Counted from the stretch's first letter, positions 680-4,079 are shown. The stretch is 19,149 nucleotides of DNA from Thermoproteota archaeon (GCA_027491395.1 JAOZFI010000014.1:1-19149); one strand, 5' to 3'. Numbers and translations are program-made. The notes: generated from the letters alone by a model not told the origin.

Positions 680-1546
680 CTGACGCGCTTCCAAGAGATA
701 CTTGCTAAGGCCTTGCAGAGCATTCCCCCGGGCAGGGTTTCATCATTCGGTGCCATAGCCTCCGCCCTAGGGGATGTCAGGGCCGCTCTCGCTGTGAGAA
801 ACGAGTGCCTAAGGCTATCTAACCTCGCACCTCATGTTCCTTGGTGGAGGGCCGTGTCGTCCGATGGTAAACCACTTCCGGGAGCCTTGAAGAGAATCAG
901 GGAGGAGGGAGGACTTGAACACCTCAGGAAGAGGGAGTTCTTCCACGACATCAGGGCCTGGCCCGTCTTCCGGTTGATGGCGGAGGCTCAGCTAATGCTC
1001 TCCTCTAGGCTGGATCTAAGGTCCCTGAAAGGAGTTGAAGTGGCTGCCGGTGTCGACGTCAGTTATGGGGGCGAGGAGGCTGTCGCGGCCTGCGTCTCGA
1101 TCGATTCAAAATTGGAGATCGTTGAAGTCAGTTACGAGAGGTTCGTCCCTCAGATACCTTATGTGCCGACCTACTTGGCCTTCAGGGAGTTGAGGGGCAT
1201 GCTTCCCTCCGCCCTCAGGTGCGATTTCGATGTGATATTTGTGGATGGGCACGGGCTCTCCCATCCGAGGATGCTAGGGGAGGCCTCACATTTGGGGTTG
1301 CTTCTGGGGAAACCCTCCATCGGAGTTGCGAAGTCTAAGCTGGTAGGGAGATTGGAGGGGGACCGTGTCTTACTCCGAGGCAGGGAGGTCGGTGCCGTAG
1401 TGAGGAGGGGTTTCGTCTCCCCCGGTCACTTGGTGGACTTGGAGAGCAGCATAGAGATATCCAAGGAGTTCTGGAGGGAAGGAAAGCAACCTCTACCCCT
1501 CATACTAGCCCACAGGATTTCCAAGGAGGCTATACGGGGATCCTGA
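680..1546 (+). CDS. nfi: Alkyltransferase-like (ATL/MGMT DNA-binding) domain fused to endonuclease V
   Basis: N-terminal domain 'IPPGRVSSFGAIA...VPWWRAV' has the MGMT fold with Trp in place of the PCHR Cys. C-terminal domain has EndoV motifs GVDVSY, YVPTYLAFRE, VDGHGLSHPR, GVAKS and a terminal LAH. Start extended from TTG 713 to in-frame CTG 680 (see findings). Confidence 0.9.
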   Translation: MTRFQEILAKALQSIPPGRVSSFGAIASALGDVRAALAVRNECLRLSNLAPHVPWWRAVSSDGKPLPGALKRIREEGGLEHLRKREFFHDIRAWPVFRLMAEAQLMLSSRLDLRSLKGVEVAAGVDVSYGGEEAVAACVSIDSKLEIVEVSYERFVPQIPYVPTYLAFRELRGMLPSALRCDFDVIFVDGHGLSHPRMLGEASHLGLLLGKPSIGVAKSKLVGRLEGDRVLLRGREVGAVVRRGFVSPGHLVDLESSIEISKEFWREGKQPLPLILAHRISKEAIRGS

Positions 1547-2981
1547 TCTCGCGCGATTTCCCAGCCTCCAGATCAACCCTCATGACGGAGTCCTTGCCCT
1601 CGGGGTTTATCACCATGAGTTGTAGGTCCTTCACATCATTGTAGGGCATTATCTTGCCCTCCAAGTACTTCCTGTCGTACCTGAAGGTGCCCTTCACACC
1701 GCTCACCGCCCTGAACCTCTCAACTAGGGTGCTGGGTGGGGCGACCCATATCCCCCTCTCGTGAGCGTTCCTGAGGAGCGAGAGAGTGGATAGCTCGTCC
1801 ATCGCGTCGACCGCCACCATGCACCCCCAATTGGCCACGAACTCCGCTGCTCTCGAAGCAGCTCCTCTATCAGAGACCCTCCCTACCAGTGGGATGTTCC
1901 AGACAAGGCCGTTAGGCCTGAATGGGCATCCGATGCCAAGCGGGAACCCGAATTCCCCAGCGATCTCGCCAGCCAGTACGTATCCCGCCTCGACGTATAC
2001 CGCCGACTTCCAAGCGTCCATCAGGGTGGAGGCTATACCCTTGAACCTGATCCCTATGCCTCCCCTCTTTATGAGGGTGGCCACCTCCTCATACTCCTCG
2101 GCCATCGACATGTGATCTATGGAGGCCCTGACTGAGGCTAGGAGGCCCACCTCGTGACCGTCCTCCTCCATTGATATGAGCAGGTCCCTGATCTTACTCG
2201 GAGTGTAGTCTTCTCCCTTCCCCACGAAGAACGTGAGGTCCTCAGTTCCCTTAATCAACCTCTCTATCCAAGATTCCGTTCTTCGAAGCAACCTTCTCAG
2301 GTCGAACCTCAGGCCGGAACGCCCCGTCCTATATATGGGAATAGAGACGGACATCCCTCCCCTGTAGCCAGAAGGGGAGATCTGCTTCATTATGAGAGGG
2401 AGCTTCTCCCTTTTGTGGAGAAGAAGAATGGAGAAGAGAAGGAACTTGGCATGCAAGTCAACTATAGGAGTGGATACGGGGACCCCTCTGAGGTCCTCCA
2501 AGACCTTGGGATTGAATCGCCTGTCGCTGGTCCTTATCCTCTTTATACCCAAGGAGGACTCCGCCCCCTTTAGGAAGTAGCTCACGTTCCTGAAGAGGTC
2601 GTATCCCAAGAGAAGGTGCGAATCCTTCGAGTAGAGAGGGGCCTGCCTGAGCAGTCTCTCGCCTTCTGGATCATACTTGGCTCCAAAGTAGGGTATCTTT
2701 ATCCTGTCCACTACCATGAAGCCTGCAGGCTCAGGCGGGGATTTCTTCACCTCAGTCTTATCTCCCCCATAGTATGAGAGGGCTGTCTCGCCCACGAATA
2801 TCGAGGGGATAGTCACTGGGACGAATTCGGTGGCCTCTGGGAATATGGCCACGGAGTGCTTTAAGGGATCTGGTTCGTCCACCTCCTCCCAGAACAGTCC
2901 CAGTGAGTCCAATGTGTGTTTGACCGCATCTCTCACATCACTGTCCAGGGATCTAACAGCCGCAATGTTCGTCGGGACCAC
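1530..2981 (-). CDS. Polysaccharide deacetylase-like (NodB/CE4-fold) protein, probably catalytically degenerate
   Basis: GTG at 2981 preceded by GGGGG; the ORF-track extension to 3101 reads through the tRNA. The segments 'YDLFRNVSYFL..E...RF...PIVD', 'TFF', 'GHEVGL', 'GIRF' and 'GFPLG...PFRP' follow the CE4-like layout, but the HDVD and His motifs are missing. Confidence 0.55.
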   Translation of the reverse strand: MVPTNIAAVRSLDSDVRDAVKHTLDSLGLFWEEVDEPDPLKHSVAIFPEATEFVPVTIPSIFVGETALSYYGGDKTEVKKSPPEPAGFMVVDRIKIPYFGAKYDPEGERLLRQAPLYSKDSHLLLGYDLFRNVSYFLKGAESSLGIKRIRTSDRRFNPKVLEDLRGVPVSTPIVDLHAKFLLFSILLLHKREKLPLIMKQISPSGYRGGMSVSIPIYRTGRSGLRFDLRRLLRRTESWIERLIKGTEDLTFFVGKGEDYTPSKIRDLLISMEEDGHEVGLLASVRASIDHMSMAEEYEEVATLIKRGGIGIRFKGIASTLMDAWKSAVYVEAGYVLAGEIAGEFGFPLGIGCPFRPNGLVWNIPLVGRVSDRGAASRAAEFVANWGCMVAVDAMDELSTLSLLRNAHERGIWVAPPSTLVERFRAVSGVKGTFRYDRKYLEGKIMPYNDVKDLQLMVINPEGKDSVMRVDLEAGKSREIRIPV

Positions 2982-3039
2982 GCCCCCTATAGAACGGAGG
3001 TGGTGGGGCCGGTGGGACTTGAACCCACGTCCTACGGGT

Positions 3040-3061
3040 CTCCCCCTCAGTGCTCCAATGA
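3040..3061 (-). other. 22-nt tRNA intron at the canonical 37/38 position
   Basis: Sequence UCAUUGGAGCACUGAGGGGGAG. Central helix CUCC/GGGG, 3' bulge AG|A, relaxed 5' side (bulge-helix-loop type). Confidence 0.9.
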
Positions 3062-3082
3062 CTGGAGCCCGCCGCCCTACCT

Positions 3083-3118
3083 TTCCAGGGCGTTCCCCCA
3101 ATCATGGGGGGAGAGCCA
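3083..3118 (-). other. Non-canonical 36-nt tRNA intron in the D-loop (position 17/17a)
   Basis: Bulge-helix-bulge: central helix CCAG/CUGG, 3-nt bulges CC|U and AA|A, inner helix GGC/GCC. Splicing restores the D-loop AGCCAGGUA. Confidence 0.85.
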
Positions 3119-3150
3119 GGCTGGGCCACGGCCCCCCGAATCCTCCTCCC

Positions 3151-3174
3151 TTTAAATCGAGGAAGTTATATAAA
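3151..3174. promoter_or_regulatory. Divergent TATA boxes for tRNA-Trp (-) and the thiolase operon (+)
   Basis: TTTAAA (3151-3156) and TTATATAAA (about 3166-3174) lie in the 59-nt gap between the tRNA 5' end (3135) and ATG 3195. Confidence 0.6.
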
Positions 3175-3194
3175 TAGTTTGTCTGGTGTTAGCG

Positions 3195-4079
3195 ATGAAA
3201 TGCCACTACTGCCAGCGTGAAGGTACTATATTCGTAGATAATTTAGGTGATTGGGTTTGCGAGGAGCACTTCGAGAGGTATTTCCTGAAAAGAGTTGATC
3301 GCGTGTTGAGGAGGGTCAGGAAAGGTAGTTCCCTCCTGTACGGGGTGTCGGGCGGGAAGGATTCGGTGGCAGCCCTGCACGCGTCCAGCCTAGTCGCATC
3401 CAAGTACCGGCTCAAGCTGGGGGCCGCGATAGTGTACACTGGCTTGGCCCCCGATTGCCTCGAGGTATTCAAATCCCTGACCGAGGAGCTGGGACTGGAC
3501 GGGATCGTGATAGATGTAAGGGCCTGGGGGATAAAGATCCCTCCCGATCCCAGGGCTGCCTGTTTTGTCTGCGGGGTGGTCAACAGGTACCTGCTTAATA
3601 GGTACGCTGTGGAGAGGGGATACGATTACGTCGCTACAGGCCACAACTTGGACGACATGGCCTACTTCGGGTTCAATAACCTCATCACCCATTCCCTAGA
3701 TTACCTCTTCTACCAGTACGATTCCGTCACCAGGCCGATGCCCGAGTACAGGATGGCCGGGAAGGTGAAGCCCCTCTTCTGGGTCAGCGACTCCGATGCC
3801 CTGAACTACGTGAGGATGAAGAGCCTCCCAACCTGCATTACCAAGTGCCCTTACGAGGGAAGGGATAAGCAGGCCGAAATCAAACCCCTACTTAATCAGG
3901 TCAGGAAGAAGTGGCCTCCATCCCTAGTCAATTTCGTGAGCAGTTTGAGGGAGCTTGCGAAGACAGCCGAACCTCCACCACGCAAGATTAATCTATGTGA
4001 GAGGTGCGGTTACCCGACATCGGGCAGGGTTTGCGCCTTCTGCAGGCTGAAGGAGAGGCTCGAGAGGGAGGTAGTGTGA
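3195..4079 (+). CDS. TtuA/Ncs6(CTU1)-like PP-loop tRNA thiolation enzyme
   Basis: N-terminal Zn finger CHYC...CEEH, PP-loop SGGKDS, CFVC, GHNLDD, KPLF, CP and C-terminal Zn finger CERC...CAFC. ATG 3195 follows GGTG; GTG 3186 is an alternative start. Confidence 0.88.
   Translation: MKCHYCQREGTIFVDNLGDWVCEEHFERYFLKRVDRVLRRVRKGSSLLYGVSGGKDSVAALHASSLVASKYRLKLGAAIVYTGLAPDCLEVFKSLTEELGLDGIVIDVRAWGIKIPPDPRAACFVCGVVNRYLLNRYAVERGYDYVATGHNLDDMAYFGFNNLITHSLDYLFYQYDSVTRPMPEYRMAGKVKPLFWVSDSDALNYVRMKSLPTCITKCPYEGRDKQAEIKPLLNQVRKKWPPSLVNFVSSLRELAKTAEPPPRKINLCERCGYPTSGRVCAFCRLKERLEREVV

Follow-up and report, generated by a model that had tools for sequence, protein, structure and literature searches.

We analysed a 19,149-nucleotide stretch of DNA from a Thermoproteota archaeon (GCA_027491395.1, JAOZFI010000014.1:1-19149; hereafter the window), whose minus strand encodes a pre-tRNA-Trp(CCA) of 135 nt with two introns (3001-3135). 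The reading that we consider probable is that this Korarchaeum-group precursor takes one of two folds, both of them functional: a methylation fold, in which the introns jointly form a guide for the 2'-O-methylation of C34 (Cm34), or a splicing fold, in which each intron is presented in a motif of the bulge-helix-bulge (BHB) type. The two folds share strands, and both appear to be selected because both sets of helices covary across about 30 related genomes. Two-sided compensatory change of this kind is, in aligned sequences, the comparative signature that an RNA with two selected conformations would be expected to leave. All coordinates of the precursor given below are on the minus strand.

Two introns and the helix that joins them

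The gene consists of three exons. Exon 1 (3119-3135) supplies tRNA positions 1-17, that is the acceptor 5' strand, the D-stem 5' strand GCCC and the start of the D-loop. It is followed, after C17, by a 36-nt intron in the D-loop (intron 1, 3083-3118). Exon 2 (3062-3082) carries the remainder of the D-loop, the D-stem 3' strand, G26, the anticodon-stem 5' strand and C32-G37, and is separated from exon 3 (3001-3039, from A38 to the CCA encoded at 3003-3001) by a 22-nt intron at the canonical 37/38 site (intron 2, 3040-3061), which holds the guide and box D. Exon boundaries were placed by in-silico splicing, combined with BHB geometry for intron 1 and with a pairing check for intron 2, and the predicted cut positions of both introns follow BHB geometry. 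When 3135-3119, 3082-3062 and 3039-3001 were joined by coordinates and submitted to ARAGORN, a clean 77-nt tRNA-Trp(cca) cloverleaf was returned, with an acceptor stem of 7 bp, a D stem of 4 bp and anticodon and T stems of 5 bp each, the anticodon stem being 3072-3068 paired with 3038-3034. Retaining intron 2 in silico led ARAGORN to call a tRNA-Trp with a 22-nt intron. The unspliced gene received no call from default ARAGORN and nothing at the Rfam gathering score, both scans missing it because of the two introns; an Rfam search with E-values up to 10 recovered only tRNA-like matches to the 3' half and chance hits. The intron mode of ARAGORN reported window 3001-3143 as a tRNA-Met(cat) with a 50-nt intron and the isolated precursor as a tRNA-Ser, calls which show that automatic annotation can mislabel this gene.

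The methylation fold is organised around a long-range helix between the introns. Its 5' strand, UCUCCCCC (3107-3114) in intron 1, and its 3' strand, GGGGGAGA (3039-3046), form 8 standard pairs (3114-3107 with 3046-3039) that run across the intron-2 3' splice site at 3040|3039 and take in the intron-2 BHB strand 3042-3045. Beside this helix lie a box C-like AUGAUU (3100-3105, with its UGA core at 3104-3102) and an exact box D, CUGA (3047-3050). The guide UUGGAG (3053-3058) ends 2 nt from box D and can pair with the target strand C32-G37 (3062-3067), which contains the anticodon CCA (3065-3063); in the window CUCCA 3067-3063 pairs with UGGAG 3057-3053. These pairings were checked by script, and all six complementarities that an earlier, sequence-only reading of this DNA had listed are present on the minus strand, with standard pairs throughout.

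Covariation was scored in an alignment of 29 orthologues, 25 of them distinct; locus L023 was left out, as its contig ends inside the gene. Among the 25 distinct rows, the seven aligned pairs of the long-range helix are paired in 92.3% of cells and three of them have changed on both sides, the outer pair being C-G in 8 rows and G-C in 9. The whole tested structure comprised the long-range helix, the acceptor and T stems, the guide and a local CGCCCU/AGGGCG hairpin: none of 500 column shuffles reached its covariation score, and sliding the partners by 1-3 columns lowered its pairing from 95% to 39-59%. From the alignment only, RNAalifold predicted two hairpins, that of the guide and CGCCCU/AGGGCG, along with the core of the long-range helix, and no BHB helices.

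An alignment-free count was made on 22 distinct strand triples, drawn from 32 sequences (the 29 orthologues and three loci of genus g3). In every triple the helix starts immediately after box D, and 3 nt separate it from the UGA of box C, so that kink-turn geometry, with boxes joined by a helix and a 3-nt bulge on the box C strand, is found in 22/22. In-register pairs of the helix number 5-8, with a mean of 6.55 that falls to 5.26 on exchange of partners among species. The helix has been rebuilt with other letters in genus g3, where about 10 bp and one bulge are formed and a C-to-U change is matched in the opposite strand. The UGA of box C is invariant and is extended to UGAU in 21 of the 22 triples and to UGAC in the remaining one.

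For the guide, 49 sequences were pooled (29, 3 and a further 17 complete metagenome copies), of which 32 are distinct. Box D varies among CUGA, AUGA, UUGA, UAGA and UCGA with an invariant final GA (32/32), and the spacer between guide and box D is 2 nt, placing C34 (3065) opposite the fifth nucleotide upstream of box D, in all 32. Guide duplexes measure 4 bp in 2 of these sequences, 5 in 8, 6 in 16, 7 in 1, 8 in 1 and 9 in 4; that of the window has 5-6 bp, six counting one G-U. Pairing reaches 1-3 nt past the exon-intron junction in six of the 32, and this extension into intron 2 covaries (A/U, AG/CU, AGA/UCU, AGG/CCU, AAG/CUU). Since the guide pairing there crosses into the intron, the paired substrate is unspliced RNA. 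Position 39 of the window's tRNA is a C, and no guide to position 39 was seen in the window.

The splicing fold and the strands it shares

In the splicing fold, the central helix of the intron-1 BHB pairs CCAG (C12-G15, 3121-3124) with CUGG (3088-3085), flanked in the window by the bulges CCU and AAA. An inner helix joins GGC (3115-3117), located by counting pairs in the orthologues, to GCC (3091-3089), so that the 3' side of the motif is the continuous strand 3085-3091. The 4-bp helix and both 3-nt bulges are kept in 32/32 distinct sequences; 25 of these have C-G as the second pair, and the other 7, which fall in two separate lineages, have U-A. The inner helix likewise retains at least 3 in-register pairs in 32/32, its third pair being C-G in 18, U-G in 8, G-C in 5 and G-U in 1. 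Within intron 1, a C-run (3110-3106) that also belongs to the 5' strand of the long-range helix pairs locally with a G-run (3095-3099), leaving AUGAUU (3105-3100) as the loop, as confirmed by script. The box C-like element thus sits either in this apical loop or, in the methylation fold, on the bulged strand of the putative kink-turn. Folded alone, intron 1 forms the hairpin with UGAU in the apical loop in 28/28 distinct orthologues; the letters of the stem vary by genus, ranging between the window's 5-6 C-G pairs and a stem of 9 bp in genus g2.

The intron-2 BHB helix pairs C32-C35 (3067-3064) with GGGG (3045-3042) as C-G, U-G, C-G and C-G, with the bulges AGU and AGA in the window. Among the orthologues, C32-C35 face four purines that precede a 3-nt bulge ending in A38, and this helix is 99% paired and almost invariant. 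Neither intron has the strict hBHBh' form and both motifs are relaxed: intron 1 has its inner helix and one possible outer pair (C11-G3081), and intron 2 has the anticodon stem outside and no conserved inner helix. One study describes the splicing endonuclease of Korarchaeota as homodimeric, with a specific loop needed for non-canonical introns (PMC4033280). The relaxed motifs fit that reported type and the endonuclease (EndA) open reading frame (ORF) found here, which has 366 aa and two PF01974 domains (genome G000, contig C37, 52654-53481, minus strand).

Three sets of strands are contested between the folds. The C-run has two partners, the G-run of intron 1 and that of intron 2, and each of them covaries with it. 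C32-C35 can pair with the guide or with the intron-2 purines at 3042-3045, a competition that is universal among carriers of the design. Strand 3091-3085 serves either the intron-1 BHB or a hairpin with exon nucleotides A21-G26. Two further structures, the anticodon stem and the intron-1 BHB (3124-3115 with 3091-3085), are crossed by the long-range helix as well, and no linker nucleotide lies between 3115 and 3114; on these coordinates, coexistence would be possible only as a pseudoknot.

The sequence-only reading had proposed mutually exclusive methylation and splicing folds, in which both splice motifs are masked while the guide complex is assembled and intron 1 gates the removal of intron 2. 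The reuse of strands is borne out, both helix sets having been kept by compensatory change. Masking holds in part: the competition for C32-C35 is universal, but the intron-2 3' splice site is buried by the long-range helix only in genera g1, g2 and g5 of the four that bear the design. In g3 the strand of the intron-2 BHB (GGAG and a 3-nt bulge) lies downstream of the long-range helix strand as a segment of its own, so the helix does not mask that splice site in every genus. Gating is unsupported: the two BHB motifs of the splicing fold are separate domains and need no cutting order.

The pairing of intron CGCCCU (3092-3087) with exon AGGGCG (A21-G26, 3073-3078), which that reading had enlisted to occupy part of the intron-1 BHB strand, fared less well. 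Its six pairs exist, yet it lacks comparative support in its own right: the exon strand is invariant, no pair has changed on both sides in the 25 distinct rows, and a G-to-C change in g3 keeps the BHB inner helix and breaks one CGCCCU/AGGGCG pair. The same duplex was considered as a D' guide for G26, with UGGA as box D', and rejected, as only 8 of the 25 rows have C-G at the fifth position (13 have U-G there and 4 no pair) and no C' partner is present. Taken as a whole, the sequence-only reading is partly supported.

That reading had also looked to folding at high temperature. At 75 °C the C-run strand forms duplexes of similar mean energy with its two partners, -5.75 and -6.02 kcal/mol. When the full-length precursor of the window was folded, the local hairpin had a probability of 0.80 at 37 °C versus 0.06 for the long-range helix, which rises to 0.5-0.6 at 60-85 °C; most of the 28 distinct orthologues populate both partners of the C-run at 75-85 °C. 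This near-degeneracy speaks for the two-fold reading. The splicing fold of the window lies 9-18 kcal/mol above the ensemble, with BHB helices at about 0 at every temperature. Removing intron 1 in silico left C32-C35 held by the guide hairpin at 0.72-0.98 and the intron-2 BHB helix near 0, and removing intron 2 left the CGCCCU/AGGGCG hairpin at 0.70-0.99. At face value these figures would speak against gating by intron 1. Two control pre-tRNAs of the same genome (Tyr and Ser-GCU) behave alike, their own BHB and anticodon stems reaching 0.00-0.14. Because these controls also score about 0, the energy model decides neither the switch nor the gating, and we dropped the energy argument for a switch as neutral evidence. 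Set against shuffled sequences, the whole precursor has a somewhat better fold (z = -2.48, with 3/200 shuffles at least as good).

A two-fold model and its alternatives

We infer the formation of a kink-turn, the binding of proteins, the methylation of C34 and the direction and trigger of a switch between the folds, in the following way. Over 8 bp, the 5' part of intron 1 would join the end of intron 2 on its 3' side, setting the box C-like UGAU opposite box D with a 3-nt bulge, as in a kink-turn. L7Ae would bind this kink, built from box C of intron 1 and box D of intron 2; the guide hairpin beside box D would hold the anticodon loop, and Nop5-fibrillarin would 2'-O-methylate C34. Neither BHB would form as long as the methylation fold lasts. 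On departure of the ribonucleoprotein, the C-run would return to the intron-1 hairpin with box C in its loop, C12-G15 would find their partner in the 3' end of intron 1, as would C32-C35 in the G-run of intron 2, and the two resulting BHBs would be cut by EndA. Shared strands, together with a long-range helix that cuts across the anticodon stem and the intron-1 motif, would keep one molecule from being in both folds at once.

The order of events proposed by the sequence-only reading, methylation before splicing, follows by a simpler route than masking. Since each intron supplies one of the two boxes, C in intron 1 and D in intron 2, the guide would be lost with the first cut in either of them; Cm34 could therefore be made only on the unspliced precursor, however the switch is driven. 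A further-reaching version, in which the D-loop intron exists to supply half a kink-turn and L7Ae, Nop5 and fibrillarin drive a two-state checkpoint, keeping both splice motifs hidden until C34 is methylated and, on leaving, allowing the C-run to return to the intron-1 hairpin and both BHBs to form, is one that we put forward tentatively and hold to be doubtful.

The genome encodes fibrillarin, Nop5, two L7Ae-family genes and the two-domain EndA. A strict two-motif regular expression for canonical box C/D small RNAs (sRNAs) found none in the genome, and a looser one found a single candidate (G000 contig C37 near 99680, minus strand), which has a canonical-looking arrangement of GUGAUGA, internal AUGA and UGAGAA, a terminal CUGA and a 5-bp terminal stem. 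As these searches gave just one candidate, there is no local box consensus for comparison.

Several features weigh against the two-fold reading. The general consensus is RUGAUGA for box C and CUGA for box D, and the window's AUGAUU followed by G agrees with the former at 5/7 positions; in its kink, the pair beside the U-U position would be U-C. Archaeal guides are reported to need two symmetric sites for full activity, and inspection by eye of the region from box C to the guide (3099-3058) disclosed no further pair of suitably placed GA dinucleotides and no second, C'/D' motif, the CUGGA at 3088-3084 lacking a C'-like partner. A study of Pyrobaculum requires at least 9 continuous pairs for a credible target prediction, and the guide duplex of the window is shorter (5-6 bp; 4-9 bp in the family); intramolecular pairing may compensate for the short duplex. 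With a C-run facing a G-run at its core, the long-range helix owes part of its pairing to composition. A search for RNA sequencing runs over window 2500-3700 listed none. Finally, the shuffle statistics overstate the support, because related genomes are not independent.

Some of these features would be expected if only the splicing fold were functional and the C-run/G-run match and the box-like letters were by-products, either of low-complexity G/C runs or of a D-loop intron copied in part from the anticodon intron. Five C face five G in the helix core, so that swapped partners still average 5.26 pairs; in some species the end of intron 2 recurs in the G-rich 3' part of intron 1 (GGGGGAGA in L009); and the degenerate box C is not accompanied by a second motif between it and the guide, as far as could be seen. 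Such an origin is nevertheless improbable in our judgement, since pairs outside the run covary (C-G to G-C, and the re-made 10-bp helix of g3), since no distinct sequence departs from the 3-nt bulge, the GA dinucleotides or the guide spacer of 2 nt, and since a neutral relic would not hold its register across four genera. It may instead be that helix and kink are real and do not serve methylation, L7Ae acting as a clamp or chaperone that joins the introns and protects the precursor at high temperature or delays its splicing. A single kink motif, a short guide duplex and an intron-2 3' splice site that is buried in three of the four genera (g1, g2 and g5) would suit this role, which we nonetheless think unlikely: it offers no reason for the fixed guide spacing, with C34 at the fifth position in 32/32, and the guiding of Cm34 is an established role of the tRNA-Trp intron in other archaea.

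The remaining alternative keeps the methylation and moves it in trans, either from one precursor to another or by excised introns annealed through the 8-bp helix, with no ordering in cis. The two-strand duplex has a computed energy of -8.3 kcal/mol at 75 °C, and the intron-borne guide of Haloferax is reported to act in trans, also when excised. Here, however, a guide of 5-6 nt would be too short to find its target at about 85 °C, the pairing that enters intron 2 in 6/32 distinct sequences argues that mature tRNA is not the target, and an excised intron 1 would fold back on its own C-run. We consider action in trans very improbable, and retain the reading of one precursor with two functional folds.

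Distribution, neighbouring features and known systems

A DNA search of 61 genomes gave full-length matches throughout the window's genus and three sister genera. A covariance model built from the 29 orthologues was then run against 43 genomes of the phylum with a cut-off of 90 bits, and found the two-intron design throughout most of the family that comprises genus Korarchaeum and its relatives (33 of 36 genomes), and in none of 7 other genomes of the phylum. Within the family, the gene is present in 20 of 21 genomes of the window's own genus (one gene is cut by a contig end, and the unmatched genome is 70% complete), in 5/5 of g2, 4/4 of g5, 4/5 of g3 and 0/1 of g4; the seven genomes from four other families scored about 47-55 bits at best, the level of any tRNA. 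The same pre-tRNA is present in the orthologue L013 and in L040 (Korarchaeum). Both genomes of the sister family f2 (L187 and L188) have a tRNA-Trp with an uninterrupted D-loop and one 57-nt intron at 37/38, and one f4 genome (L189) has a tRNA-Trp with a single intron. No tRNA-Trp was located in g4 (G023), f3 or f5, where the loci fetched (L190-L194) are other tRNAs. A metagenome scan with a stricter pattern returned 20 stretches, 17 complete and 3 partial, with few new variants.

Three observations on related loci were made alongside. The 57-nt intron of f2 can form a 9-bp guide in cis, with C32-G37 and 3 intron bases; it has AUGAAGA upstream of the guide and GGAG with a 3-nt bulge at its end, and no CUGA follows the guide, so that its box arrangement is unlike that of the window. 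Two g2 loci, L028 1440-1621 (G034) and L024 1461-1624 (G031), have a third insertion in the T-arm or T-loop, of about 49 and 31 nt, respectively; the insertion in L028 contains GUGAUGA and could be a further intron with box-like letters. In a single-intron tRNA-Trp of an uncultured archaeon (L067 1-260), a guide and a D-like UUGA are followed by a hairpin and then by AUGAU, an order permuted relative to the window.

Around the gene, a TATA-like element, TTTATATA (3167-3174, minus strand), lies 32 nt upstream of tRNA position 1, is conserved in the upstream alignment of the genus and is a putative promoter element. Directly downstream of the tRNA (window 2880-3000, minus strand), 60-100 nt are conserved at the nucleotide level across the genus; this stretch is the start of a 482-aa ORF (1530-2978, minus strand) with no Pfam match, and its conservation may reflect the protein or an RNA. 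An ORF on the plus strand (713-1546) combines an Endonuclease V domain with an O6-methylguanine methyltransferase DNA-binding domain. Elsewhere in genome G000 (contig C26, 35180-36076), the intron mode of ARAGORN called a tRNA-Gln(ctg) with an 802-nt intron, which may be an artefact or a very long intron.

If the two-fold reading is true, this precursor would be a natural RNA with two alternative structures that have both been kept by compensatory evolution, and its guide could not outlive splicing, as the boxes come from different introns. It would provide a system for studying how archaea, which lack compartments, order tRNA modification and splicing, and whether a single kink with a hairpin-held target supports fibrillarin. 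It would also answer, in functional terms, the long-standing question of why a non-canonical tRNA intron is kept; removal of the tRNA-Trp intron in Haloferax and yeast is reported to have had little effect. Should the more tentative two-state version hold as well, two introns of one gene would make up a built-in checkpoint coupling tRNA modification to splicing.

The two-fold principle itself is not new for pre-tRNA-Trp: guide pairing and the BHB are reported to be mutually exclusive in the euryarchaeal precursor, in work attributed to Clouet d'Orval in 2001 and Bortolin in 2003. A forced order of removal in multi-intron pre-tRNAs was reportedly described by Tocchini-Valentini in 2009. What appears to be new is a guide split over two introns: full-text searches found no such guide and no Korarchaeota tRNA-Trp guide, with the proviso that supplementary intron tables may list both introns. 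In Haloferax and further Euryarchaeota, the intron of tRNA-Trp is established as the carrier of a box C/D guide for Cm34 and Um39 (PMC4090602, PMC11408192, PMC7714728, PMC7994747). The euryarchaeal guides (Haloferax volcanii; Pyrococcus sR50) resemble that of the window in the tRNA, in the target C34 and in the location of the guide in the tRNA's own intron, and reportedly also in that the target nucleotides lie within the BHB, so that guide pairing excludes the splicing motif. They differ in carrying four boxes and guides for both C34 and U39 in one 37/38 intron of about 65-105 nt, which still acts when excised, whereas in the window box C lies in the D-loop intron and box D in the 37/38 intron, one kink and one guide are seen, and either splice would destroy the guide.

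Multi-intron pre-tRNAs with a forced order likewise combine two introns in one precursor with a structure that times BHB formation, and the text of tRNAscan-SE 2.0 mentions introns so close together that one must be removed before the second BHB can form. There the order arises from nested or overlapping introns, whereas the BHBs of the window are separate domains and the competition comes from the guide fold. With an ordinary archaeal box C/D sRNA the window shares the terminal helix, the 3-nt bulge, the GA/GA kink, a guide ending 2 nt upstream of box D and the fifth-nucleotide rule. The ordinary sRNA is a short free RNA with C'/D' boxes and guides of 10-12 nt that act in trans; in the window, the place of its internal half is taken by 56 nt of intron and exon, with the target included.

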